11,717 nt of DNA from Nannocystis sp. ILAH1 (GCF_026626585.1 NZ_JAPNKD010000018.1:1-11717); one strand, 5' to 3'. Shown: positions 514 through 11,393, counted from the stretch's first letter. Made by a program: numbers and translations. The notes: generated by a model not told the origin, from the letters alone.

Positions 514-577
514 CATGGGGGCATGGTCTCGAGGACATGAATAAAAGAGCATGTCCTCGGGGACATGTGAAGTGTGG
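514..577. repeat. CATG-phased 14-bp tandem array, copy A. CATG at 514, 522, 536, 550, 564; four units are exactly 14 bp.
   Basis: Read directly. Units are CATGGTCTCGAGGA / CATGAATAAAAGAG / CATGTCCTCGGGGA / CATGTGAAGTGTGG. The 10-bp spacers are variants of the palindrome TCCTCGAGGA. The array lies between the reductase stop (719) and the substrate-binding gene start (448). Confidence 0.7.
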
Positions 578-718: not shown

Positions 719-1768
719 TCAGGCGACGGGGATCGGCGGCGGGACGATGCTGTCGGGCTGGCCGCCGGCGATCCGCGGGCGGCTGCTCTCGACCTGCTGG
801 TGCGGGGTGCCGAGGGCGATCGCGCTGGCGGCGTCGAGGCGGGCGAGCTGGGCCGGCGCGAGCTCGAGGGTGAGCGCGGCGAGGGCGGCGTCGAGATGTG
901 GGCGGGTGCGCGGGCCGAGGATGGGGATCCGCGCGGTCGTGGAGCGATCGGCGTGGGCCAGCGACCAGGCGAGGGCGACCTGGGTCGGGGCGACGCCGGC
1001 CTCGGCGGCGACTGCGACCACGGCGTCGAGGATGCTGGTCTCGCGCGCGGTCTTCTCGGTGTGGACGAGCATGCCGAGGCCGGTGAGGCGGCCCTCGTCG
1101 CTGGTGCGGTACTTGCCGGTGAGGAAGCCGCCGCCGAGCGGCGACCACAGGGCCGCGCCGAGCCCCAGCGCCTCGGCCATCGGCAGCAGCTCGCGCTCCC
1201 CGGTGCGCTCGACCAGGCTGTGCTCGATCTGCACGCCCGCGAGCGGGGTCCACCCGCGCAGCTCGGCGATCGCGTCGCCTCGCGCGACCCGCCAGGCGGG
1301 GAAGTTCGAAAGGCCGCCGTAGAGGATCTTGCCGGCCCGCGCGAGGTCGTCGAGGCCGCGCACGATCTCATCGATCGGGGTCAGGCCGTCGGGGAAGTGG
1401 ACCCAATACAGCTCGATGCGGTCGGTCTTGAGCCGGCGCAGGCTGGCCTCGAGCGCGGCGATCATGGTCTTGCGGCTGTTGCCGGTGGCGTGCAGGCCGC
1501 CCCCGACGCCGAGGGTGTACTTGCTGGCGACGACGAAGCGGTCGCGCTCGGCCGCGAGGAACTCGCCGAGCAGTTGCTCCGACTGGCCGACCTGGTAGGT
1601 GTCGGCGGTGTCGATGAAGTTGCCGCCCGCCTCGGCGTAGGCGTCGAAGATCCGCCGCGCCTCGGCGGGCTCGCTGCCGTGGCCCCAACCAGTGCCGAAG
1701 TTGCCGGTGCCGAGGGCGAGCTCGGAGACGCGTAAGCCTGTGCGACGACCGAATGTCCTGTACCGCAT
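719..1768 (-). CDS. Aldo/keto reductase (AKR superfamily, NADPH-dependent oxidoreductase)
   Basis: 349-aa ORF. The N-terminus MRYRTFGRRTGLRVSELALGTGNFG is the classic AKR start. Catalytic tetrad candidates are D/Y in FIDTADTYQ, K in VVASKY and H in WVHFPD. Third codon positions are GC-rich. AGGAG sits about 6 nt upstream of the ATG, read as reverse complement at 1774-1778. The overlapping ORFs 70..1371(-), 551..1735(+) and 675..1322(+) are low-complexity alternate frames. Confidence 0.85.
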   Translation of the reverse strand: MRYRTFGRRTGLRVSELALGTGNFGTGWGHGSEPAEARRIFDAYAEAGGNFIDTADTYQVGQSEQLLGEFLAAERDRFVVASKYTLGVGGGLHATGNSRKTMIAALEASLRRLKTDRIELYWVHFPDGLTPIDEIVRGLDDLARAGKILYGGLSNFPAWRVARGDAIAELRGWTPLAGVQIEHSLVERTGERELLPMAEALGLGAALWSPLGGGFLTGKYRTSDEGRLTGLGMLVHTEKTARETSILDAVVAVAAEAGVAPTQVALAWSLAHADRSTTARIPILGPRTRPHLDAALAALTLELAPAQLARLDAASAIALGTPHQQVESSRPRIAGGQPDSIVPPPIPVA

Positions 1769-1775
1769 CGTGTGC

Positions 1776-1830
1776 TCCTGAGGTGATTTTTAGATTATGG
1801 ACGTCATATGGAATCGGCAAGGGGATGGCG
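1776..1830. promoter_or_regulatory. AT-rich divergent promoter region between the reductase (-) and the MFS gene (+). It contains a direct repeat TATGGA(1796-1801)/TATGGA(1807-1812) and the GACGTC/CATATG palindromes.
   Basis: A local drop in GC (tgatttttagattatggacgtcatatggaatcgg) in a ~70% GC background, lying between divergently oriented genes. No -10/-35 consensus is asserted. Confidence 0.35.
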
Positions 1831-1895
1831 CGTGAGTTCGGTTGAATCGGGTCGGGCGGATCCGCGCGGCGAGGGCTTGCGATCCGGAAATTATT

Positions 1896-1912
1896 CGTTC
1901 AATGATTGAACG
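1896..1912. promoter_or_regulatory. Perfect 17-bp palindrome CGTTCAAT-G-ATTGAACG. Candidate operator for the HxlR-type regulator, or another dimeric wHTH repressor, abutting the MFS start codon.
   Basis: Read directly: 8-bp inverted arms with a 1-bp centre. It is AT-rich and lies immediately 5' of the ATG at 1914. HxlR/MarR-type regulators bind palindromes of this size near the genes they control. Confidence 0.5.
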
Positions 1913-1913
1913 C

Positions 1914-3278
1914 ATGGAGATGCGTCTGTCCCCGTTGGTCGTGGCCAGCCTGGCCGTGTTCGCGGTGTTCCTCGACACGACGGTGCTGTTCGTGGCGTTC
2001 CCGTCGATCGCGGCGACGTTCCCGGCGGTGCCGACGGCCGAGCTGTCGTGGGTGCTGAACGCGTACACGATCGTGTTCGCGGCCGCGCTGGTGCCGTTCG
2101 GGCGGCTCGCCGATCGCTGGGGGCATCGGGCGATGTTCCTGGCCGGGTCGATCGGATTCACCCTGGCGTCGCTGCTGTGCGCGGCGGCGCCGACTCCGGG
2201 GCTGCTGGTGGCCGCGCGCGTGCTGCAGGCGGCCGGCGGCGCGGCGCTGGTGCCTTCGTCGCTGGCGCTGGTGATGCGGGCGACGCCGCGCGAGAAGCTG
2301 CCGGTGGCGCTGGCGGTGTGGGGCGCGACGGGGGCGGTGGCCGGGGCGGTCGGGCCGACGCTCGGCGCGGCGCTGATCGAGGCGTGCGGCTGGCGCTGGG
2401 TGTTCGCCATCAACCTGCCGGTCGGGCTGGTGACTGTGCTGCTCGGGCGCCGGCGACTGGCCGAGTCACGCGACCCGGACAGCGTGCTGCCGGCGCCGCT
2501 CGGGGTGGTGCTGCTGGTGCTCGCGGCGGTGTTGATCACTCTGGCGCTGGTGCTCGGCGAGGCGTGGGGCTGGACGTCGCAACGGACCGCGGCGACTCTG
2601 GTGGCCGGCCTGGCGACCCTGGCGGTGTTCGTGCTCCATCAGGCGCGCACGCGGGCGCCGACGATCGATCTGTCGCTGTTCGCGGCGAGCAACTTCCGCT
2701 GGGCCAACGCGGCGACGCTGACGTTCGGCGCGGCGTTCACTGCGATGTTCCTGGCCAGCGTCCTGTTCCTCACCGCGGTGTGGGACTGGTCGATCCTCGC
2801 GGCGGGCTTCGGCGTGGCGCCCGGGCCGCTGCTGGTGGCGGTGCTGTCACCGCGGTTCGGGCGGCTGGCGGCGCGGATCGGCCAGCGACCGCTGCTTATC
2901 GTCGGCGGGCTGTCGTTCGCGCTCGGAGGGCTGTGGCGCCTGCTGATGCTGTCGGCCGAGGTCGACTACGCGATCGACTATCTGCCGTCGATGCTGCTGA
3001 CGGGGACGGGGGTGGCGCTGTGCCTGCCGCAGCTGTCGAGCGTGGTCGGCCAGGCGCTGCCGGCCAATCGCCTCGGGGTCGGCGGGGCGGTCCACCAGGC
3101 GCTGCGCCAATTCGCGGGGACGCTCGGGGTGGCGCTGGCGATCGGGCTGACTGCCGGGGCGAGCGGGCCGGCCGACGCGCTGGCGCGGTTCGACCGGGTG
3201 TGGTGGGTGATGATCGCCGGCGGCTTGGCGACCGCGCTGTGCTCGCTGCCCCTTCGGACAGGTCCGGCCCGGGCGTGA
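1914..3278 (+). CDS. MFS transporter, DHA2 (EmrB/QacA-like 14-TMS drug:H+ antiporter) family
   Basis: TM1 is LSPLVVASLAVFAVFLDTTVLFVAFPSIAATF. Motif A is GRLADRWGHR. Antiporter motif C is GAVGPTLGAALIE. There are many hydrophobic spans. The track ORF begins at 1842, but codons 1881-1913 have A/T-rich third positions and overlap the palindrome, so I prefer the ATG at 1914 (MEMRLSP...). The start is uncertain; 1842, 1902 and 1920 are all possible. Confidence 0.8.
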   Translation: MEMRLSPLVVASLAVFAVFLDTTVLFVAFPSIAATFPAVPTAELSWVLNAYTIVFAAALVPFGRLADRWGHRAMFLAGSIGFTLASLLCAAAPTPGLLVAARVLQAAGGAALVPSSLALVMRATPREKLPVALAVWGATGAVAGAVGPTLGAALIEACGWRWVFAINLPVGLVTVLLGRRRLAESRDPDSVLPAPLGVVLLVLAAVLITLALVLGEAWGWTSQRTAATLVAGLATLAVFVLHQARTRAPTIDLSLFAASNFRWANAATLTFGAAFTAMFLASVLFLTAVWDWSILAAGFGVAPGPLLVAVLSPRFGRLAARIGQRPLLIVGGLSFALGGLWRLLMLSAEVDYAIDYLPSMLLTGTGVALCLPQLSSVVGQALPANRLGVGGAVHQALRQFAGTLGVALAIGLTAGASGPADALARFDRVWWVMIAGGLATALCSLPLRTGPARA

Positions 3279-3291
3279 TACAACGAGCCTC

Positions 3292-3741
3292 GTGCGGCGC
3301 AAGCGACTCGACCGGATGCAGTGCTCGATCGCGCGGGCGCTCGACGTCGTCGGCGACCCGTGGACGCTGCTGCTCGTGCGCGACGCGCTGCTCGGGGTGA
3401 CGCGCTTCGAGGCGTTTCAGGCGCGGCTGCAGATCCCGCGGGCCACGTTGACGGCCCGCCTGGAGCACCTGGTCGCCGCGGGAATCCTCGAGCGCCGGTC
3501 CTATCAGGATCATCCGCCGCGCGAGGAGTACGTGCCGACGGCGAAGGGCCGGGGGCTGCGGCCGGTGATCGTGACTCTGATGCAGTGGGGCGACGAGTTC
3601 GCCCGCGAAGACCCACCGCCGACGGTGCTCGAGGACGCCGCCACGGGGCTGCCGATCGAGCCGGTGCTGGTCGACCGCGTCAGCGGGGCGCCGCTCACCG
3701 CGCTGCGGGTGCGCGCGGTCGGACCGGTGGTGCCGCGGTGA
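3292..3741 (+). CDS. HxlR-family (MarR-like winged-helix) transcriptional regulator. Probably a thiol-based electrophile/redox sensor.
   Basis: MQCSIARALDVVGDPWTLLLVRDALLGVTRFEAFQARLQIPRATLTARLEHLVAAGILERR matches the HxlR signature C-x-I/V-A-R-x-L-D-x-x-G-D-x-W-T, with an N-proximal Cys as in YodB/HypR/QorR-type regulators. The start may be the ATG at 3292 or at 3319. There is a ~45-aa C-terminal extension. Confidence 0.8.
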   Translation: MRRKRLDRMQCSIARALDVVGDPWTLLLVRDALLGVTRFEAFQARLQIPRATLTARLEHLVAAGILERRSYQDHPPREEYVPTAKGRGLRPVIVTLMQWGDEFAREDPPPTVLEDAATGLPIEPVLVDRVSGAPLTALRVRAVGPVVPR

Positions 3742-3752
3742 GGTTGAGGGAG

Positions 3753-3822
3753 CATGCTCGTTCGAGCATGTCCTCGAGTGCATGAAGGATGGGGCATGTC
3801 GGAGGAGACATGCGCGAAAGGT
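3753..3822. repeat. CATG-phased 14-bp tandem array, copy B. Five units: CATG at 3753, 3767, 3781, 3795, 3809, each exactly 14 bp apart.
   Basis: Units are CATGCTCGTTCGAG / CATGTCCTCGAGTG / CATGAAGGATGGGG / CATGTCGGAGGAGA / CATGCGCGAAAGGT. The array lies between convergent genes (HxlR stop at 3741, permease stop at 3822-3824). The last unit ends at the permease stop codon. Confidence 0.75.
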
Positions 3823-4610
3823 CAGGAGACTGCGAGCTCGCGGCCGCGCCAGCGGCGGAGGGCGAGCTCGCCGAGCAGGGCGACGAGGCCGAACAGCAGC
3901 AGGCCGAGCAGGGTGGCGGTGAAGATCGCGGCGAACAGGTAGGCGGTCTGCAGGCGGCCGGAGGTCTGGAGGATGAGGGCGCCGAGGCCGAGCTCGTCGG
4001 CGCCGAAGCCGGCGAAGAACTCGCCGACGATGGCGCCGATGACCGCGAGGCCGCCGCTGATCTTGGCGCCGGCGACGAAGTAGGGCAGCGAGCCGGGCAG
4101 GCGCAGCTTGAGCAGCAGCTGCAGGCGCGAGGCGTCGCTCATGGCGAACAGCTCGAGCAGCTGCGGGTCGACGCGGACGAGGCCGGTGGTGCCGTTGGTG
4201 ATGATCGGGAAGACGCTGAGGATCGCGGCGGTGAGGACGACGCTCTGCAGGCCGGTGCCGAACCACACGACGATCAGCGGGGCGACGGCGACGATCGGGA
4301 CGGTCTGCAGGAAGATCGCGTACGGGTAGAGGCTGCGCGCCGCCGTCTGCGACTGCGAGAACAGGACTGCTACCAGGCCGCCGACGACGAGGCTGGCCCC
4401 GAGGCCGCCGAGCGCGCCGAGGGCGGTCAGCAGCGCGGCCTGGGCGAGCTCGCCGACGTGGGCTGCGGCCTCGCGTGCGACCTCGGCCGGGGTCGGCACG
4501 AGGTAGGCCGGCAGCGCCAGGGCGCTGCAGGCGAGCTGCCACAGGCCGAGGAGGGCGAGGAAGACGAGGAGCGGCGGGAGCGCGGCTCGAGCGGCCGATG
4601 CGAGGGACAT
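3822..4610 (-). CDS. ABC transporter permease, nitrate/sulfonate/bicarbonate (SsuC/TauC-like) family
   Basis: 262-aa polytopic hydrophobic protein (…LLTALGALGGLGASLVVGGLVAVLF…IFLQTVPIVAVAPLIVVWFG…) with a BPD-transporter-like loop around GLVRVDPQLLELFAMSDASRLQLLLKLRLPGSLPYFVAGAKIS. It sits adjacent to an ABC ATPase on the same strand. Confidence 0.8.
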   Translation of the reverse strand: MSLASAARAALPPLLVFLALLGLWQLACSALALPAYLVPTPAEVAREAAAHVGELAQAALLTALGALGGLGASLVVGGLVAVLFSQSQTAARSLYPYAIFLQTVPIVAVAPLIVVWFGTGLQSVVLTAAILSVFPIITNGTTGLVRVDPQLLELFAMSDASRLQLLLKLRLPGSLPYFVAGAKISGGLAVIGAIVGEFFAGFGADELGLGALILQTSGRLQTAYLFAAIFTATLLGLLLFGLVALLGELALRRWRGRELAVS

Positions 4611-4779
4611 GCGAGGAGGCAGAGAGGAGAGGAGGAGGCGAGGTGCCGGCGCCAGGCGAGGGAGCGGGGAGATGTGGGGAGGAGGAAGGCCGGCTGCGGC
4701 GGCGGGGCGGGGATCGGCCGGGAGAGCTGTCCCGAGGGACTTGTGTGGAGGGACAGGTGCGAAGGGACAGGCGGAGAGG
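4611..4779 (-). other. 169-nt intra-operon spacer. It is ~80% purine on the + strand, so the transcribed minus-strand RNA is a polypyrimidine tract. It contains short direct repeats and there is no Shine-Dalgarno before the permease ATG.
   Basis: On the + strand: gaggaggcagagaggagaggaggaggcgagg … gagggacaggtgcgaagggacaggcggagagg, with AGGGACAGG(T/C)G repeated. The inverted repeat GTCCC-GA-GGGAC lies at 4729-4740. The GGAGG motifs are on the non-coding strand relative to the flanking genes. Confidence 0.5.
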
Positions 4780-5622
4780 TCAGGTCCGAACAGGCAGGTC
4801 CGAAGGGTCAGGCGGGGCGGCGGCGCGCAAGTGGGCGCGGACGTCGGCGGCGATCGCCGCGAACTCGGGGCTGCCGATCAGGGCGGCGCGGCGCGGGCGC
4901 GGCAGGGCGATCGGGATGTCGGCGACCACGCGGCCGGGGCGGCCGGAGAGGACGATGACGCGGTCGCCGAGCAGGACCGCTTCGGCGACGCTGTGGGTGA
5001 CGGCCAGGGCGGTGAAGCGGTCGCGCTCCCACAGGCGCAGCAGCTCGTCGTTGAGCCGCTCGCGCGTGAGCTCGTCGAGGGCGCCGAACGGCTCGTCGAG
5101 CAGGAGCAGCTCGGGCCGGGTGACGAGGGCGCGGGCCAGGGAGGCCCGCATCTTCATGCCGCCCGAGAGCGCAGTCGGCGGGGCGGCGGCGAACTCCGAC
5201 AGGCCGACGAGCGCGAGCGCGGCGTCGGCGGCGGTGGTCTGCTCGGCTTTCGGGGCGCGCGCGAGCTCGAGCGGGAGGCGGACGTTGGCGTGCAGGCTGC
5301 GCCACGGGAGCAGGGTCGGATCCTGAAACACGAAGGCGACCGCGCGGCGCGCCCGGGCCCGCTCGGGGGCCTCGCCCGCGACTGTGATGGTGCCCGCGCT
5401 GGCGGGCGCGAGGCCGGCTGCCACGCGCAGGAAGGTCGACTTGCCGCAGCCCGAGGGGCCGATGAGGGCGAGCAGCTCGCCGCGGCGGACGACGAGGTCG
5501 AGGCCGCTCAGGGCCTGCACGCCGCCCGCGAACTGCACGCCGAGGCCGCGGGCCTCGATGTGCGGGGCTGGGGCCGGCTCGGTCACGCGGCGGACGCTAA
5601 CACAGCAGCGGACGCGACGCAC
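4780..5622 (-). CDS. ABC transporter ATP-binding protein (SsuB/TauB-like)
   Basis: Walker A is GPSGCGKST. The ABC signature is LSGGMKMRASLARAL. Walker B is LLLLDEPFGALD. The H-loop is AVTHSV. The start may be the ATG at 5622 or, more likely, the GTG at ~5585 (VTEPAPAPHIEARGLGV…). Confidence 0.8.
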   Translation of the reverse strand: MRRVRCCVSVRRVTEPAPAPHIEARGLGVQFAGGVQALSGLDLVVRRGELLALIGPSGCGKSTFLRVAAGLAPASAGTITVAGEAPERARARRAVAFVFQDPTLLPWRSLHANVRLPLELARAPKAEQTTAADAALALVGLSEFAAAPPTALSGGMKMRASLARALVTRPELLLLDEPFGALDELTRERLNDELLRLWERDRFTALAVTHSVAEAVLLGDRVIVLSGRPGRVVADIPIALPRPRRAALIGSPEFAAIAADVRAHLRAAAPPDPSDLPVRT

Positions 5623-5706
5623 AGGCAGCCGGACGGCTTCGTGGTGACGGCGATCGGCGACACGGCGCGACGGACGAGCGAGGCGCTCGGCGTCCGGGTG
5701 GCGGCG

Positions 5707-6492
5707 TCAGGCCTTGCGGGGGCGCGAGCGGCGGGCGCGGGCGGGCTTGGCCGGGGGCGCTGGGGGCTCGGGCTCGGGCTCGTCTGCCTCTTCGGGCATG
5801 TCCTCGAGGTCCGGTGCTTCCGCACCTGTCGTTTCGGACATGTCCTCGGAGCCCTCCTCGGCCTCGGGCTCGGGCCCGGCCTCGGGCGGGTCGGACGGGG
5901 CCGCCTCGAGGCCGCTGTTGCGGAGGGTGCGGGGCGGCAGCAGCTCGGGCTCGCTGACGACCTTCTTGGCCAGGAAGATGGCGGCGTCGATCTGGGAGAA
6001 GCTGCGGGCGCGGTAGAACTGGAGCGCGCGCTTGTTGTTGGCGGCGACCTCGAGGACGAGGTGCGTGCAGCCGCGCACGCGGGCGAGGTGCTCGAGCTGC
6101 TCGATGACGAAGCTGCCGATCCCGCGGCCCTGGAAGTCGGGGTGGATGGCGATCTCCTCGACGAACAGCGGGCGCATGTCGCGGCTCTCGAAGTAGCGCT
6201 CGTTGATCCAATTGTCGGAGCCGATGACCTCGTAGGCGCACTCGGCGTAGCCGACGATCACCGGGGCGTCGCCCTCGTGGATCTCGAACAGCAGCTGCTC
6301 GATGCCCTCCTCCTCGTAGATCTCGAGGAAGCGGGTCTTGGTGCGGGGGCGCTGGTACTCGACGGTCTCGCGGTTGACCGAGCGGAACACGCGCTTGAGG
6401 AACTCCCACACCTTGTTGAGGTCGCGGCGGTGGATCCGGCGGACACGGATGGTCGGCTCCGTGACGGCGGGCGCGGGCTTGCGGGAGGCCAC
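5707..6492 (-). CDS. GNAT-family N-acetyltransferase (~175-aa core) with an ~85-aa acidic/Pro-rich low-complexity C-terminal tail that ends in a basic KPARARRSRPRKA
   Basis: The acetyl-CoA binding motif is QGRGIGSFVIEQLEHLA, followed by the GNAT core LVLEVAANNKRALQFYRARSF. The start is GTG (rc of cac at 6490-6492). The tail is ...EAGPEPEAEEGSEDMSETTGAEAPDLEDMPEEADEPEPEPPAPPAKPARARRSRPRKA. The gene is co-oriented with and immediately upstream of the ABC ATPase. Confidence 0.75.
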   Translation of the reverse strand: MASRKPAPAVTEPTIRVRRIHRRDLNKVWEFLKRVFRSVNRETVEYQRPRTKTRFLEIYEEEGIEQLLFEIHEGDAPVIVGYAECAYEVIGSDNWINERYFESRDMRPLFVEEIAIHPDFQGRGIGSFVIEQLEHLARVRGCTHLVLEVAANNKRALQFYRARSFSQIDAAIFLAKKVVSEPELLPPRTLRNSGLEAAPSDPPEAGPEPEAEEGSEDMSETTGAEAPDLEDMPEEADEPEPEPPAPPAKPARARRSRPRKA

Positions 6493-6542
6493 GGCCGAAG
6501 TCTAGCACCGCCGAAGGGCCGCTCGTCCGCCTTGCGTGTCTG

Positions 6543-6552
6543 CGCACGTGCG
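6543..6552. promoter_or_regulatory. Perfect 10-bp palindrome CGCACGTGCG in the 75-bp divergent promoter region between the GNAT gene (-) and the beta-helix lipoprotein gene (+)
   Basis: Read directly. It is followed by GGCATGCTCGG, which is similar to the GAGCATGCTC motif of the CATG arrays. Confidence 0.3.
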
Positions 6553-6567
6553 TGGCATGCTCGGCCG

Positions 6568-8388
6568 ATGCGTCCCCGCGCCGCTGCGTCCGCTGCCGAG
6601 CCCGCGCGCCGGCGTGGCCGACGTCCCGGCGCGGGCCTGCGCCAGATCGGGCTCGGGTGCGTGGCCGTCGCGCTCGCTTGCGGACCGGACGAGCAGAAGT
6701 CGCAGAAGGTCGAGGCGAACCCGAACATGCCCGACCGGGTGCAGGCGCCTGCGCCCGCGCCGCGCCGGCCGGAGGTCAGCGACTGCCCCGAGGCTCTCCG
6801 CGAGCCGGAGCAGGTCGACCGCGTGATCGGCTCGGCCTGCAAGTCGGTGACGGTCCACCCGGGCTACCGGATCGAGAACGGGTCGCTGACGATCGAGGCA
6901 GGGGTGACCCTGCAATTCATGCCCGACGCCGAGCTGGCGGTCGGCTTCGAGCGCCCGGCGACGCTGCACGTGCGCGGCACGCCCGAGTCGCCGGTCCGCT
7001 TCACGGCCGCGGGCGATCAGGCCAAGCCGGGGGCGTGGAAGGGGATCGCGCTGTACGACCACGCCGACGGCTCGGAGATCGCCGGGCTCGTGCTCGAGTT
7101 CGCCGGTACGGACCTGCGCGGGGCGATCTACGTGCAGGCGACCGACGTGAAGATCGACGGCTCGACGGTGCGCGACAGCCAGAACGTGGCGGTCCACGTC
7201 ACGTCGAAGGGCCACGTCAGCAGCTTCAAGGGCAACCGGCTCGAGCGCGTGAGCTCGCCGGCGCTGCTGCTGCCGGCCCGCTCGGCCGGGTCGGTGACGC
7301 CCGACAACACGTTCCCGCCCGACTCGGTGATCCACGTGCTCGGCGGGATGATCCGCGAACGCGCCCGCTGGGACGTGCCGAAGGTGCCGTTCGTGATCGG
7401 CGGGGTGATCGAGATCGAGGGCCCCGACGACAAGCACGAGGCGATGCTCGAGCTGGCCCCGGGGACAGTCCTGAAGTTCGACGACGACGCGTACTTCACG
7501 GTCGGCTACGACCACCCGGCGGCGCTCATCGCCGAGGCGGCGGGCAAGGAGCCGATCGTGCTGACGTCGGCGACGCGCGAGACGTCGCACGCGTGGCGCG
7601 GGGTCAACCTCTACCGCTCGGCCACCGCGAGCTTCAGCAACGTGGTGTTCGAGTACGGCGGCCAGCGTTCCGACCGCGGGGTGGTCTACGCCAACAACGA
7701 GGCGCGCCTCAGCGCGAAGGGCTGCACGTTCCGCGACAACGGCGGCGGGGTGACGCTCCAGGGCGCGAACGTCCGCCTCGGCGAGTTCCGCGACAACACG
7801 TTCGAGCGCTCGCACCCGGCCTTCGACGTGAGTCCGCAGCTGTTCGGGATGATCCCGGCCGAGAACAAGCTCGACGCGGCGACGACGGTCCAGGTCGAGG
7901 GCGGCGAGGTCAGCAAGGACGCGGTGTGGCACGACTTCGGGGTGCCGATCGAGGTCAAGCGCCCGGTCTCGGTCGACAACCAGGCGACGCTGACGATCCG
8001 CGCCGGCGCCAAGCTGCGCGTCCACGACGGCTTCTCGCTCGGGGTCGGCGAGTTCGGCGGCGGCTCGCTGCGCGTCGAGGGCACGGCCGAGCGCCCGGTG
8101 CAGATCTTCGGGACCACCGACCGCCGCGGGACGTGGGACGCGATCCGCCTGTACGAGAAGGCCCGCGGCAACCTGTTCGAGCACGTGCAGCTGCGCAACG
8201 CCGGCGGCGAGGGGGCGATCAACGTCGCCATGGGCGTCGACGCTGTGGTCCGCGACGTGTCCTGCGTGCGCTGCTTCAGCCCGACGCTGACGTGGGCCTG
8301 CGGCTCGCGCGTGACGTCCGAGCGCGTCACGGGCGGAGCCGAGACGCCGGCGGCGACGCTGCCGCCGTTCGGCTGCGATCCGTCGTGA
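6568..8388 (+). CDS. Secreted putative lipoprotein of 606 aa, built from three tandem ~180-aa right-handed beta-helix-like modules, with a Cys-rich C-terminus
   Basis: The ATG at 6568 gives MRPRAAASAAEPARRRGRRPGAGLRQIGLGCVAVALACGPDEQKS, a basic n-region, an h-region and lipobox-like ALAC. There are three internally repeated A modules: LTIEAGVTLQFMPDAELAVGFERPATLHVRGTPESPVRFTAAGDQAKPGAWKGIALYDHADGSEIAGLVLEFAG / LELAPGTVLKFDDDAYFTVGYDHPAALIAEAAGKEPIVLTSATRETSHAWRGVNLYRSATASFSNVVFEYGG / LTIRAGAKLRVHDGFSLGVGEFGGGSLRVEGTAERPVQIFGTTDRRGTWDAIRLYEKARGNLFEHVQLRNAGG. Each is followed by a B module with Asn/Asp ladder-like tracts (GCTFRDNGGGVTLQGANVRLGEFRDNTFERS). The last 45 aa contain 5 Cys. The 5' 2 kb of track ORF 4609..8388 is an antisense artifact. 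The real gene is the 3' third, in the same frame. Confidence 0.7.
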   Translation: MRPRAAASAAEPARRRGRRPGAGLRQIGLGCVAVALACGPDEQKSQKVEANPNMPDRVQAPAPAPRRPEVSDCPEALREPEQVDRVIGSACKSVTVHPGYRIENGSLTIEAGVTLQFMPDAELAVGFERPATLHVRGTPESPVRFTAAGDQAKPGAWKGIALYDHADGSEIAGLVLEFAGTDLRGAIYVQATDVKIDGSTVRDSQNVAVHVTSKGHVSSFKGNRLERVSSPALLLPARSAGSVTPDNTFPPDSVIHVLGGMIRERARWDVPKVPFVIGGVIEIEGPDDKHEAMLELAPGTVLKFDDDAYFTVGYDHPAALIAEAAGKEPIVLTSATRETSHAWRGVNLYRSATASFSNVVFEYGGQRSDRGVVYANNEARLSAKGCTFRDNGGGVTLQGANVRLGEFRDNTFERSHPAFDVSPQLFGMIPAENKLDAATTVQVEGGEVSKDAVWHDFGVPIEVKRPVSVDNQATLTIRAGAKLRVHDGFSLGVGEFGGGSLRVEGTAERPVQIFGTTDRRGTWDAIRLYEKARGNLFEHVQLRNAGGEGAINVAMGVDAVVRDVSCVRCFSPTLTWACGSRVTSERVTGGAETPAATLPPFGCDPS

Positions 8389-8480
8389 GGCGAGCTGTCG
8401 ACGGGCGGCGCTCGGGCGGCGCGGGTGAGAGCTCGCGAGACAAGAGGTAATTTTTGAGCCGTAAAGGCTGGTTTGGGCGG

Positions 8481-8506
8481 ACAAAGGTACATATATGCAC
8501 CTTTGT
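8481..8506. other. 26-bp near-perfect AT-rich palindrome ACAAAGGT-a-CATATATG-c-ACCTTTGT, followed by TTTCC, inside a ~70-bp low-GC island (8440-8510). Possible bidirectional terminator hairpin or protein-binding site.
   Basis: Read directly. 24 of 26 positions are self-complementary. The island lies between convergent genes (lipoprotein stop at 8388, kinase stop at 8643). A UUUUU run at 8451-8455 precedes a small hairpin AGCC-GUAAA-GGCU at 8458-8470. Confidence 0.35.
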
Positions 8507-8573
8507 TTCCGGCCGCGAGCGTCGGTGCATGAGCAGGCGAGAGCGCGAGTGGGATGGATGATGAGCGCGCTGG

Positions 8574-8647
8574 CATGACGCATGGAGCATGTCGACGAGG
8601 ACATGCTCCGAAGAGCATGCTCCTATGGACATGTTCTTCGAGTCATG
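8574..8647. repeat. CATG-phased array, copy D. CATG at 8574, 8581, 8588, 8602, 8616, 8630, 8644, with spacing 7, 7, 14, 14, 14, 14.
   Basis: The sequence is GCATGACGCATGGAGCATGTCGACGAGGACATGCTCCGAAGAGCATGCTCCTATGGACATGTTCTTCGAGTCATGG. It contains GAGCATGTC-GACGAG-GACATGCTC, a 9-bp perfect inverted repeat around a 6-bp centre. The final CATG overlaps the kinase stop codon (TGA = rc of 8643-8645). In-phase ATGs also occur at 8561 and 8554. Confidence 0.75.
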
Positions 8648-11393
8648 GCCTCGAGGGCAGGTGCGTCCGCGGGCCGGCGCGGGTCAGCAGGCGCTCGCTG
8701 GCGGCCAGCGGGCGGGCGAAGCTGGCGCCGGCGCTGCGGTAGAAGGCGAGCGCGGCCCCGAGGTGCGGGCGAGCGGCGGCCACGGCGGGAGGCGTGGCGG
8801 TCAGCAGGGCCTCGGCGAGGGTGCGGTGGGCGCGAGCGAGGCGCGGGGCCCAGTGCGGGTCGTCGGCGGCGAGGACGGTGAGCTCGGCGACCGCGGCGGC
8901 CAGCGGGACGCGGGCCTCGAGCGGTCGGCCGCGGACGAGCAAGTTCTGGCCGAGGACCAGGCGCAGCTCGGCGATCTCCTCGCTCGACCAGGTGGCGTCC
9001 GGCATGCGCGCGAGGGTGGCCTGGAGGTGCTCGACGGCGGTGTTGTCGTCGACCAGACCGGCGAGGCCGCGGTAGCCGGCGAGCAGGGTCGCCTCGGGCC
9101 CGAACAGGCGCGTGCCGGACAGCTCCGACAGCTCGGCGGCGGCGCGGAAGACCGAGGCGGCGTCGTCGTCATAGCCGATCTCGGTGGCGGCGCGGCCGAG
9201 GTGGAAGAGGCACCGCGTGCGGCGCACGAGGTCGTCGGGCAAGAATCGCTCGAGCGCGACGCAGCCGGTCTGGAGGATCGACCAGGCCTCGCCCGGCTCG
9301 GCCAGCTGGGCGGCGGTGATCCGCGCCTCGATCGTGGCGGGGTGGACGACGCCGAGCTCGGCGTCGAAGATCTCGAGGGCGCGCGCGAGGAGGTCGTCGC
9401 GCGCGGCGCCCGGCTCGGTGACGGAGGCGAGGTTGAGCAGGGTGTAGCCGACGTCGCGGTGGCCGGCCGACAGGGCGCCCTGGCGCACGCTCAGGGCCTC
9501 GGTGAAGTAGCGCCGCGCCTCGGCCGAGTTGCGCTGGGCGAGGTTGGCGACGCCGAGGTTGTGCAGGACGAGGCCGCGCAGGGCCTCGGGGGCGGCGCCG
9601 CGAGAGGCGAGGGCGAGGGCGAGGGGCTCGTCGGCGAGGGCGCGAGCGACCATCTCGGGCCGGCGGCTGGCGGCGACGATCCGCGAGGCCACGGCCTCGG
9701 CCGCGATCGCGTCGCCGCGCGACTCGATGCCGCTGCGCATGGCCCGGGTCAACCACTCGAGCTCCTGGCCGGTCTCCTCGGAGGTGTTGAGCGAGAGCCG
9801 CCCGCGCAGCAGCGCGACCTCGGCCCGCAGCGGGGCGTAGCCGATCTGCTCGGCGGCGGCCTCGATGTCGACGGCCTGATCGACCGCGTCGTGGATCCGC
9901 CCGAGCTTGGCCAGCGCCTCGGCCCGCGCCATGTGATTGCGCAGGTCGGCGACCCGCTCGCCGAGCTCGGGGTCGTCGGGCGCGGGCGGCTCGGCCTTGA
10001 GGAAGGCGAGCTCGTGACAGGCGGAGGGCGGCACGAGATCGCTGGCGGCGCCGAGCGCCCGCGGGGCCATGTCCATGTCGGCGATCGAGAGGGCCTTGAC
10101 GGTCTCGTCGAAGGCGTCGCGCCGGCGATCGAGGCAGCGGCGCTGGCGATCGAGCAAGGCCTCGGTGTAGCGGCCCTGGTGCTCGGCGAGGCAAGTGTCG
10201 CGGTGGTTCTCGGCCCACGAGGCGGCGAAGCGATCGAGCTTGTCGGCGACCCTGGGCCACAGCACCGCGGCGTAGTTGGGCGCCGCGTCGCGCAAGGCGG
10301 TGGCGACGGCGTTGCGCTGGGCCGGGCCCCACACGCGGGCGATGTCGGCGTCGGCGTCGGCACACGGGGACTCGGCGGCGGCCTCGGGCACGAAGGCGAG
10401 GCCGGCGGCGCCGGCGGTGAGGGCGAGCGCCAGCGCGGCGCCGACGACCCGCCAGGTCCGCCCGCGCGACGGGACGAGCGCGCCGAGCAGCGCCTCCATC
10501 GACGGGTAGCGGTCGCGCGGCTCGGTCTTGAGGCCGCGCATGAGGGCAGCGATCAGCCACGCGGGCACGCCGTGGTTGCGCGGCGGAGGCCGCAGGTGGC
10601 CGTTGGTGATCGCGTGCGAGAGCGCGAGGATGTCGTTGCCGGCGAACGGCGGCAGGCCGAACAAAGCCTCGTAGAGGGCGACGCAGAAGCTGAACTGGTC
10701 GGAGGCCGGCTCGGCCGCGCCGCCGCGCCAGCGCTCGGGCGCGAGATAGGCGGGCGTGCCGAGGATGTCCTCGCCGTCGTCGCCGACGCGGATCCGCATG
10801 CTCTGACTGGCGCCCGAGGACAGGTCGAGCAGGCCCGGGCGATCGGGGGTAGCGCGCACGAGCCCGAAGTCGAGGACGCAGGCGCGGCCGGTGGCGTCGA
10901 TCATGACGTTGCCGGGCTTGAAGTCGCGGTGCAGGAGGCCCACCTCGTGGGCGGCGGCGAGGCCTCGCGCGGCCTGAGTGAATACGTCGTGGATCTCGCG
11001 CCAGGTCCGCGGCCCGGCGGCCAGCCAGGCCGGCAGCGCGGCGCCGCGGATCAGCTCCATGGCGACGTAGACCTGGCCCTTGATGACCCCGGCCTCGAGC
11101 ACGGTGATGACATTGGGGTGGCTGACGCCGGCCATCGCCTGAGCCTCGCGCAGCAGCCGGATCTGGCCCTTCGACCCGGTGTCGGGCAGGACCTTGATCG
11201 CGACCTTGCGGTCGAGGAGCTCGTCGTAGGCGGCGTAGACGACCGCCGTGCCGCCGCCGAGGCGCTCGAGGATGGTGAACCGACCGAGCCGCGGAGGCAG
11301 GGTCGCAGGGACCGAGATCGCGACACCAGGCAGCGACTGCGTGATGTCCACCGAGATCCCCGACGCGTCCGTATCGGGAATGATGACGCTCAT
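8643..11393 (-). CDS. Membrane-anchored Ser/Thr protein kinase: an N-terminal Hanks kinase domain, a single TM helix, and a ~570-aa C-terminal TPR-like/helical-repeat sensor region
   Basis: The kinase domain has the beta3 Lys in VAIKVL, catalytic HRDFKPGNVMI, DFG (VLDFGLV), GTPAYLAPE, and a glycine loop LGGGTAVVY. The TM segment is RVVGAALALALTAGAAGLAFV. After the TM helix there are 4 Cys and TPR-like stretches (LHNLGVANLAQRNSAEARRYFTEALSV). The track start is a TTG at 11435. I prefer the ATG at 11393 (MSVIIPDTD…). The 766-aa ORF 9169..11469(-) is an Arg-rich alternate-frame artifact. Confidence 0.8.
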   Translation of the reverse strand: MSVIIPDTDASGISVDITQSLPGVAISVPATLPPRLGRFTILERLGGGTAVVYAAYDELLDRKVAIKVLPDTGSKGQIRLLREAQAMAGVSHPNVITVLEAGVIKGQVYVAMELIRGAALPAWLAAGPRTWREIHDVFTQAARGLAAAHEVGLLHRDFKPGNVMIDATGRACVLDFGLVRATPDRPGLLDLSSGASQSMRIRVGDDGEDILGTPAYLAPERWRGGAAEPASDQFSFCVALYEALFGLPPFAGNDILALSHAITNGHLRPPPRNHGVPAWLIAALMRGLKTEPRDRYPSMEALLGALVPSRGRTWRVVGAALALALTAGAAGLAFVPEAAAESPCADADADIARVWGPAQRNAVATALRDAAPNYAAVLWPRVADKLDRFAASWAENHRDTCLAEHQGRYTEALLDRQRRCLDRRRDAFDETVKALSIADMDMAPRALGAASDLVPPSACHELAFLKAEPPAPDDPELGERVADLRNHMARAEALAKLGRIHDAVDQAVDIEAAAEQIGYAPLRAEVALLRGRLSLNTSEETGQELEWLTRAMRSGIESRGDAIAAEAVASRIVAASRRPEMVARALADEPLALALASRGAAPEALRGLVLHNLGVANLAQRNSAEARRYFTEALSVRQGALSAGHRDVGYTLLNLASVTEPGAARDDLLARALEIFDAELGVVHPATIEARITAAQLAEPGEAWSILQTGCVALERFLPDDLVRRTRCLFHLGRAATEIGYDDDAASVFRAAAELSELSGTRLFGPEATLLAGYRGLAGLVDDNTAVEHLQATLARMPDATWSSEEIAELRLVLGQNLLVRGRPLEARVPLAAAVAELTVLAADDPHWAPRLARAHRTLAEALLTATPPAVAAARPHLGAALAFYRSAGASFARPLAASERLLTRAGPRTHLPSRP

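Follow-up and report, generated by a model that had tools for sequence, protein, structure and literature searches.

In Nannocystis sp. ILAH1, the ATPase and permease genes of a NitT/TauT-type ABC transporter operon stand 169 nt apart, which raises two questions: where did this spacer come from, and how is the permease behind it translated? The window, that is, the whole stretch of DNA that was analysed, comprises 11,717 nucleotides (11.7 kb) with a G+C content of 72–79%.

The Operon and Its Gene Models

The ATPase gene lies on the minus strand at 4780..5586 (Pfam ABC_tran, E 2e-31). Its ORF is open as far as 5622 (4780..5622), and the start at 5586 was chosen by homology, as the annotated orthologs of N. 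pusilla and N. bainbridge have 268 aa. The permease gene follows on the same strand at 3822..4610 and encodes 262 aa (Pfam BPD_transp_1, E 5e-22). Its start is the earliest ATG, GTG or TTG in the open frame, and the closest homologs (259–264 aa) are annotated with the same start. As the ATPase ends with TGA at 4782-4780 and the permease begins with ATG at 4610-4608, the interval 4611-4779 measures exactly 169 nt; ORF coordinates and Pfam matches thus bear out the gap that a first-pass annotation had described. A GNAT acetyltransferase gene occupies 5707-6492 on the minus strand, and genes for an HxlR regulator and an MFS transporter on the plus strand converge with the minus-strand genes. A plus-strand ORF at 4609..8388, antisense to the ATPase gene, was rejected as an artefact of high G+C.

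The permease shares 98% identity with its N. pusilla counterpart and 92% with the N. bainbridge and N. radixulma proteins. Against four orthologs, dN/dS amounted to 0.18–0.40 for the ATPase and 0.23–0.40 for the permease. As judged from these ratios both genes are under purifying selection and functional, which implies that the permease would still be needed. Several ways in which the spacer itself might be translated were considered and rejected. All three frames of its mRNA strand are open, yet none contains an ATG, GTG or TTG. An in-frame extension of the permease into the spacer is not conserved at the protein level between the window and ortholog L002. Fusion of ATPase and permease by readthrough or frameshifting does not fit the frame offset, because the window has +1 and N. 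pusilla +2.

The Ancestral Junction

ATPase–permease junctions were collected from 80 species-representative genomes and ten further contigs, which yielded 73 scorable pairs from many phyla. The two genes overlap by 4 nt (ATGA or GTGA) in 55/73 pairs and overlap somehow in 66/73, while three pairs have a 2-nt gap. Gaps of more than 20 nt were found in just four of the 73 pairs, so that a spacer of this length is indeed as unusual as had been claimed. The distant Nannocystis MAGs L001 and L005 keep a Shine–Dalgarno (SD) sequence (AGGAG) together with the ATGA/GTGA overlap. Spacers are limited to the N. pusilla / N. bainbridge / N. radixulma subclade, in which they measure 29, 38, 43, 143/144, 167, 169, 200, 234 and 241 nt. 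Since they are confined to this subclade and vary in length, the comparison identifies the spacer as a derived, lineage-specific insertion into a gene pair that was ancestrally ATGA-overlapping and translationally coupled. The coupling seen in most orthologs is the ancestral arrangement of this operon, and it has been lost here, where stop and start are separated.

Long spacers at the same junction in L003, L029 and L045, which belong to other phyla, were considered as a convergent pyrimidine solution and rejected, as these spacers consist of inserted hairpins or repeats whose composition is balanced.

An insertion of this kind might simply be functionless. It would then be an expanding and contracting minisatellite or low-complexity sequence, the bias of which was inherited from a C-rich founder and kept by slippage, and the permease would be expressed adequately by chance, or poorly. 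The first-pass annotation had named the absence of comparable spacers from orthologous operons as a sign of a neutral insertion. They are absent from 66/73 of these operons, which comes close to that picture of a lineage-specific event. A neutral origin also agrees with the spread of spacer length among close relatives (29–241 nt) and with the related locus L004, where the junction is plainly triplicated. Nevertheless, we consider a functionless spacer rather unlikely overall, since purifying selection on the permease, and several properties of the spacer discussed below, argue against it.

Composition and Small Motifs of the Spacer

On the plus strand the spacer consists of 95 G, 33 A, 29 C and 12 T and is thus 75.7% purine. 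The strong purine bias reported earlier therefore stands, but only the best 100-nt stretch attains the figure of about 80% G+A. On the mRNA strand C accounts for 56% and G for 17%. No other 169-nt stretch in the window is as purine-skewed (mean purine fraction 0.547, sd 0.050, maximum 0.769), and the skew extends over the initial ~80 nt of the permease CDS, which are C/U-rich on the mRNA. In 98 kb of related DNA examined, extreme purine/pyrimidine (R/Y) skew was almost limited to the spacer locus. Skewed intergenic DNA as a general habit of the genome was rejected on these grounds, and the near-uniqueness of the bias also speaks against a functionless insertion. The C/G ratio of the mRNA strand is 3.28 across the whole spacer; over 78 nt it peaks at 4.6 within the spacer, the highest value of the window (median 1.27, 99th percentile 2.75). 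The spacer mRNA contains no ATG, GTG or TTG, no stop codon and no GGAG, GAGG or AGGA, and direct reading of the mRNA strand revealed no TA dinucleotide.

The spacer falls into two main parts. The immediate leader of the permease is a C/U-rich low-complexity tract of 118 nt (4611..4728, minus strand), which is aperiodic, as autocorrelation gave no significant periodicity. Descent of this tract from a decayed 14-nt array was considered, but a residual 14-nt periodicity was sought and none was significant. The tract does contain micro-repeats (GAGGAGGA x3.1 at 4613-4637), which would suit a functionless product of slippage. Between this tract and the tandem array described in the next section lies the small inverted repeat GTCCC-GA-GGGAC (4729..4740, no strand assigned), which was correctly noted in the first-pass annotation. 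It corresponds to the GTCC/GGAC junction between units of the repeat family to which that array belongs, and in the ortholog alignment no relative but the closest, N. pusilla L081, retains it.

The purine bias had led to the suggestion of H-DNA. More generally, a DNA-level structure, either a triplex or a G-quadruplex on the G-rich template strand, could act in transcription or recombination, and one strand with 76% purine and several G3-4 runs on the plus strand would be its raw material. The sole candidate for H-DNA is the longest unbroken homopurine run, AGAGAGGAGAGGAGGAGG (18 nt; 4621..4638, plus strand), which holds an 11-nt mirror repeat, GAGGAGAGGAG. For H-DNA this is a short run, and L081, L082 and L002 do not conserve it; in addition, 41 pyrimidines (29 C and 12 T) interrupt the tract as a whole. 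The G-runs are spaced in a non-canonical manner, and nothing ties either structure to the spacer locus. H-DNA as a selected feature is thus unsupported, and we assign a DNA-level role an almost negligible probability.

A 14-nt Array Straddling the ATPase Stop

The 5' third of the spacer and the final 33 nt of the ATPase ORF are covered by a tandem array of ~4.6 copies of a 14-nt unit (4749..4812, minus strand; TRF period 14). The unit consensus is TTCGGACCTGTCCC on the mRNA strand and AGGGACAGGTCCGA on the plus strand. The array includes the direct repeats that had been described as AGGGACAGG(T/C)G; they are present as CCTGTCCC at 4750-4757 and 4764-4771 on the minus strand, 14 nt apart. What had been overlooked is that they belong to a genome-wide 14-nt repeat family. 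Autocorrelation peaked at lag 14 with a z value of 4.0 in the window, and values of 4.0–6.0 were obtained across the window, L081, L082 (N. bainbridge) and L089. The signal was weaker in L088 and L002, and the periodicity is limited to the 5' part of the spacer. When eight orthologs are aligned, the C.TG cores show no variation and keep their phase across four units. L084 (38 nt) and L086 (29 nt) have the shortest spacers, and in both of them the last CATG in register supplies the ATG of the permease.

The end of the ATPase has changed as well. Alignment of the orthologs places the ancestral stop at the TGA of ...GCCGCCTGA (4808..4810, minus strand). Because a 5-nt indel has put this TGA out of frame, the ATPase now reads nine further codons to its present stop. 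The resulting tail, PPDPSDLPVRT, reaches ~11 aa past the ancestral end, and repeat units encode part of it. The ATPases of L084, L002 and L088 end with ...RLRAA(A)* at the aligned TGA, whereas those of the window, L081 and L082 read on.

Units in the spacer have the form TCSGA-CCTG-TCCCT. Their flanks are the same as those of the CATG units found elsewhere in the genome, but the centre has changed from A to C and there are fewer G residues. The CCTG array has no excess RNA structure, with a fold z value of −0.06; the spacer of L082 gave +0.29. Going by its units, the spacer array is a CCTG-core (A-to-C) variant of the CATG array family.

CATG-Phased Arrays at Other Loci

CATG motifs in 96 kb of Nannocystis DNA have their nearest neighbour at a distance of exactly 14 in 52 cases and never at 13 or 15, while shuffled sequence gave a mean of 1.6 neighbours at distances 13–15. 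In 565 kb from other taxa only seven CATG pairs at distance 14 were present, with no peak, and the more distant Nannocystis MAGs were without CATG arrays. The 11.7-kb window contains four arrays and 20.8 kb of N. pusilla contains seven to eight. The CATG arrays of the window are found at 519-567, at 3750..3826 (no strand assigned) and, at the stop of a kinase gene, at 8574-8661. The array at 3750..3826 starts at the stop of the permease gene and takes up all the space as far as the stop of the converging HxlR gene; its RNA is predicted to form hairpins between adjacent units (z −4.67). It is an example of the family at the end of a transcription unit.

The unit consensus, nCGGA-CATG-YCCyn, is a palindrome, and CATG arrays in general fold as RNA into hairpins of adjacent units, with z values of −3.4 to −4.75. 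In the window, L081, L128, L129, L130 and L165, the arrays begin ~0–60 nt 3' of stop codons. They sit between convergent or tandem genes in N. pusilla (L081) and five family-like metagenome contigs, and the divergent promoter regions of L081 have none. These five contigs (L128, L129, L130, L165 and L167) came from a scan of metagenomes for four CATG motifs spaced by 14 nt, in which ~5/80 loci were family-like and the remainder were mostly unrelated perfect satellites from other organisms. By this distribution, the CATG-phased 14-nt arrays form a family that is specific to a Nannocystis subclade and is found just 3' of stop codons. The literature searched yielded no prior description of 14-nt CATG arrays, and the family at Nannocystis stop codons appears to be undescribed in the searchable literature.

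The closest known counterparts are the REP and BIME elements of E. coli and other enterobacteria, which also occur between genes of ABC transporter operons, for example malE-malF. REP units are ~35 nt long and imperfectly palindromic, are present in many copies per genome, often in tandem, and form RNA hairpins. Like these, CATG arrays consist of short palindromic units that are multi-copy, dispersed, often tandem and hairpin-forming as RNA. They too are extragenic, located just 3' of stops, between convergent genes and occasionally inside an operon. They differ in their 14-nt unit with strict CATG phasing, and they have neither sequence similarity to REP nor an Rfam match. The copy in the spacer differs further, as the change from CATG to CCTG has abolished the palindromic core and no hairpin is formed. 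Since core and hairpin are lost, the spacer array probably does not act as REPs do. [quoted passage not shown]

Turnover of the Spacer

The two parts of the spacer evolve differently. In the array part, identity to the window is 94% for N. pusilla, 81% for N. bainbridge, 72–74% for N. radixulma-L088 and 70% for L089, which is about the rate of divergence of 4-fold degenerate sites. For the C/U tract the corresponding values are 78, 47, 40–43 and 45%, and this tract is effectively unalignable beyond N. pusilla, with many indels. Between the window and N. pusilla the whole spacer has 19% mismatches plus 12 gap columns, compared to 6.3–6.6% at 4-fold sites. The C/U tract evolves three to four times faster than 4-fold sites, and this speed, with the many indels, favours the view that the spacer has no function. 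Composition behaves otherwise, since every long spacer has 73–78% pyrimidine and 15–19% G despite the turnover of its sequence. That the pyrimidine content is held across lineages with unalignable tracts speaks against a functionless spacer.

The primary sequence of the C/U tract is therefore unconstrained, and its composition would be kept either by selection or by slippage of C/U-rich motifs. The low G content could have arisen passively, through slippage-duplication of C-rich units rather than selection. The lack of start codons in the spacer is not strictly conserved, since the spacers of L082 and L083 hold GTG or TTG. As the long spacers share one insertion event, the contrast presented by a G-purged sequence inside an operon amounts to a single locus (n = 1).

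Translation Initiation at the Permease

An SD-like 4-mer within 20 nt upstream was present at ~8/44 Nannocystis gene starts, and the missing SD at the permease is not exceptional for this genome. Many starts, including those of the ATPase, GNAT, HxlR and NMT1 genes, instead have a TGnTAnnnT box 6–9 nt before the start codon. At the ATPase this is an extended −10-like box, TGTGTTAGCGT (5594..5604, minus strand), which ends 7 nt ahead of the GTG at 5586. The context TGTGTTAGCGTCCGCCGC directly followed by GTG, or its TG(C/A)TAGCGT variants, is kept in L081, L082, L084, L086, L088 and L090; the count of loci with this conservation is seven. A −10-type box near the start is the signature of leaderless transcription in the ‘group C’ genomes of GeneMarkS-2 (PMC6028130). 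The box at the ATPase thus suggests that the ATPase–permease unit begins with a leaderless transcript.

The permease start has no SD, no ATGA overlap and no leaderless-type −10 box, and a leaderless TAnnnT box before the permease was not found in the window or in any long-spacer ortholog. The proposal that initiation at the permease is SD-independent is thereby supported, as coupling and leaderless initiation are lacking as well. The leader directly 5' of the permease AUG, CCUCGCCUCCUCCUCUCCUCUCUGCCUCCUCGC, had been read correctly; it is the same as the anti-SD core (CCUCC), not its complement. The last 40 nt before the start are 80–90% pyrimidine, and no other of the 44 starts exceeds 70%. 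The region from −40 to +30 has a minimum free energy (MFE) of −10.7 kcal/mol, compared to a background of −25.3 ± 6.4, and belongs to the least structured 2.1% of 1165 same-strand windows. This rank, within the least structured 2% of the window, is a further point against a spacer without function. The MFE of the same region is −1.6 to −14.8 in long-spacer orthologs and −20 to −23 in overlap orthologs with an SD. The C/U tract gave a fold z value of +0.87 and its centroid structure is unpaired.

It is experimentally supported that absence of local structure permits initiation without an SD (PMC3121790), and non-SD genes have a symmetrical nucleotide bias around the start codon (PMC5397173). 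The weak structure at the permease start matches both rules: it has no SD, and the C/U-rich bias reaches about symmetrically from ~−116 to +80 around the AUG, where it would prevent pairing. Two differences should be mentioned. Firstly, the regions studied by Scharff et al. (2011) and Nakagawa et al. (2017) are mostly A/U-rich or A-rich (PMC3121790; PMC5397173), whereas low structure is reached here through depletion of G in a 73% G+C context. Secondly, the permease is an internal cistron that begins 169 nt past a stop. We consider that the G-poor composition probably does no more than keep the permease start unfolded and hence usable for ribosomes.

Promoters, Regulatory RNA and Rho

Instead of a translational leader, the spacer could contain an internal promoter or a cis-regulatory RNA (riboswitch, attenuator or sRNA) that serves the permease. 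Its unusual length is the one property that points in this direction, although a promoter for an alternative (non-sigma-70) sigma factor inside the spacer or the ATPase gene is conceivable. The promoter scan found no sigma-70-like site in 3600-6700, and the combined scan for promoters and terminators found nothing in or near the spacer. The spacer has no TA dinucleotide and no −10 box like those before other genes, and the internal promoter suggested by the first-pass annotation is unsupported. As for RNA, Rfam contained no family matching the spacer at the gathering score or at E<=1; one match at E<=1 was a spurious archaeal snoRNA inside the permease CDS and was rejected. The fold z values of the spacer (−0.06, +0.87 and +0.50) are around zero or positive, and its primary sequence is unconserved and cannot be aligned between species. 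A regulatory RNA, which had also been suggested, thus finds no support, and by these comparisons the spacer is not a conserved regulatory RNA. Altogether an internal promoter or cis-regulatory RNA seems highly improbable.

Termination by Rho is a further possibility. A rut site is C-rich, G-poor, unstructured and untranslated RNA of 70–80 nt or more. The spacer RNA has each of these properties over more than 80 nt within a transcription unit, but the likeness is one of composition, as no rut consensus exists. The spacer could therefore be an intra-operon attenuator that lowers transcription of the permease relative to the ATPase. The high C/G ratio across the spacer and over its best 78 nt, the unstructured RNA and the fact that no ORF can start within it are in line with such a role, for which E. 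coli REP325 provides an intra-operon precedent (bioRxiv 10.64898/2026.03.23.713779). However, ABC importers need equimolar amounts of ATPase and permease, so that strong polarity would bring no obvious benefit, and the permease is under purifying selection with no promoter of its own detected. An attenuator as the role of the spacer is therefore unlikely. Attenuation is compatible with the spacer being an unstructured leader, in which case it would be a side effect.

Origin and Role of the Spacer

The descriptive part of our interpretation, namely an array plus a C/U tract that together form a young and rapidly evolving non-coding insertion specific to one lineage, is solid. Regarding its role, the reading we prefer, with confidence evenly balanced between right and wrong, is that an insertion seeded by repeats now provides a leader that lacks structure and start codons and allows internal initiation without an SD; Rho-dependent polarity may accompany this. 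In this view, an array belonging to the local repeat family would have arisen at, or grown from, the ATGA junction and separated the ATPase from the permease, after which the C/U tract would turn over through indels and slippage. Co-transcription of both genes presumably persists from the conserved leaderless-type promoter before the ATPase, and the permease would be translated by de novo SD-independent initiation at its internal AUG. The G-poor flanks would leave the AUG region single-stranded, with neither upstream start codons nor the hairpins of the palindromic family. Binding of ribosomal protein S1 to the pyrimidine-rich, single-stranded tract is a plausible help. The CCTG state, non-palindromic and AUG-free, together with the C/U tract would thus make the separated arrangement tolerable. 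Some Rho-dependent polarity is a likely side effect, because 169 nt of untranslated, C-rich and G-poor RNA resemble a rut site. The same property counts against this leader, as such a stretch should favour Rho termination and so oppose expression of the permease.

In terms of known systems, the best place for the spacer is among intercistronic insertions: it derives from a dispersed repeat of the REP-like kind and seems to double as an unstructured, SD-less leader. By itself it does not represent a new regulatory device, and lacking an SD is the norm in this genome. Its meaning lies in the evolutionary route, in which a short-repeat family specific to one lineage breaks translational coupling in a conserved operon. 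The insert would then be tolerated or reshaped through RNA that is G-poor and unfolded in a 73% G+C genome.

A more far-reaching reading, which is possible though on the doubtful side, is that Nannocystis of the pusilla/bainbridge/radixulma subclade have an undescribed REP-like system. Its tandem arrays of a 14-nt unit, with a palindromic core in strict phase (GGA-CATG-YCC), would originate at or beside C(A/C)TGA stops and lengthen through slippage, and their role would be that of hairpin terminators or of stabilisers of 3' ends. The copy that grew inside the ATGA overlap of this operon would have been selected into a hairpin-free, AUG-free and G-depleted CCTG derivative, joined to a C/U ‘landing pad’ that sustains SD-independent internal initiation. 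If this were true, the locus would present a naturally disarmed terminator-type repeat inside an operon. The CATG family would offer a tractable system for the punctuation of transcription and translation in bacteria of high G+C content without U-tract terminators and SD sequences, and as a by-product of this analysis the 14-nt array family is of more interest than the spacer itself.

Tandem Arrays Downstream of Stop Codons

Tandem arrays of a 14-nt unit phased on CATG recur in the window (519-567, 3750-3826 and 8574-8661) and in the N. pusilla locus L081 (5903-5990, 10799-10858, 14034-14065, 15171-15216, 18206-18237 and 19907-19966). In both, stop codons lie just 5' of the arrays. The phasing is strict and the unit has the palindromic core GGA-CATG-YCC; in folding predictions, adjacent units pair as RNA hairpins with z-scores of -3.4 to -4.75. 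These arrays are restricted to the N. pusilla/bainbridge/radixulma subclade, and no earlier account of them turned up in the literature that could be searched. L081 also carries a repeat with a period of 54 nt and 2.7 copies (16028-16173), which holds sequences resembling the 14-nt unit (CGACCTGTCCCCGCGGACATCC) and lies within a predicted gene of 456 aa without a Pfam domain. Either the array family gave rise to a coding repeat here, or the host gene was mis-called.

Past the TAA stop codon (8448-8450) that ends the + strand gene 6552-8450, the window has an A/T-rich island (8482-8509). Its hairpin CAAAGGTACATATATGCACCTTTG, with TTTCC after it, resembles a conventional intrinsic terminator, and the island is only ~70 nt away from a CATG array.

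Variation at the ATPase-Permease Junction

The same site between the ATPase and permease genes has changed in other ways in other genomes. In the more distant Nannocystis MAG locus L004 (3846-3945), the junction, consisting of an SD and GCATGACCCGCG, is present in tandem triplicate with a period of 29 nt, so that the ATGA motif occurs three times and the gap measures 37 nt. This is a plain case of junction duplication. In the relative L086 (940-985), the spacer is 29 nt long, belongs to the CATG type and contains a perfect palindrome, AGAACATGTTCT. The ATGs of the spacer give rise to tiny uORFs: one begins within the ATGA at the ATPase stop, and the terminal TGA of another overlaps the permease ATG. 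These uORFs could form a relay of coupled mini-ORFs.

Junction insertions in L003 (3593-3976), L029 (193-310) and L045 (3919-3985) are independent gains in other phyla. In L003, from a Polyangia MAG, the spacer is 384 nt long and carries three copies of an element that contains AATGTACAGGCATGTTTTTGC; a good SD (GAAGGAGG) comes after them. The spacers of the two planctomycete MAGs (L029 and L045; 118 and 67 nt) resemble long hairpins. None of the three is pyrimidine-rich.

Operon Layout and Gene Starts

In the relatives L084 (4805-5752), L089 (1307-2266) and L090 (1750-2757), NMT1, which encodes the substrate-binding protein, comes 9 nt after the permease gene, whereas the window (719-3741) and its N. 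pusilla and N. bainbridge counterparts have an HxlR-MFS-aldo/keto-reductase block between the two. The binding-protein gene has therefore split off from the operon in the latter three.

Most genes in the window and in Nannocystis relatives lack an SD, and many starts are preceded by a TGnTAnnnT box that ends 6-9 nt from the start codon. In the window, this box is found at 5594-5604 ahead of the ATPase gene, and in the 40 nt preceding the starts of the GNAT gene (6492) and the HxlR gene (3292; GTGATACAATGGGCCCC|GTG). Equivalent boxes are present in L081, L082, L084, L086, L088 and L090. This suggests that leaderless transcription is widespread in Nannocystis, some of it from promoters lying within the 3' end of the gene before, as for NMT1 in L084, L089 and L090.
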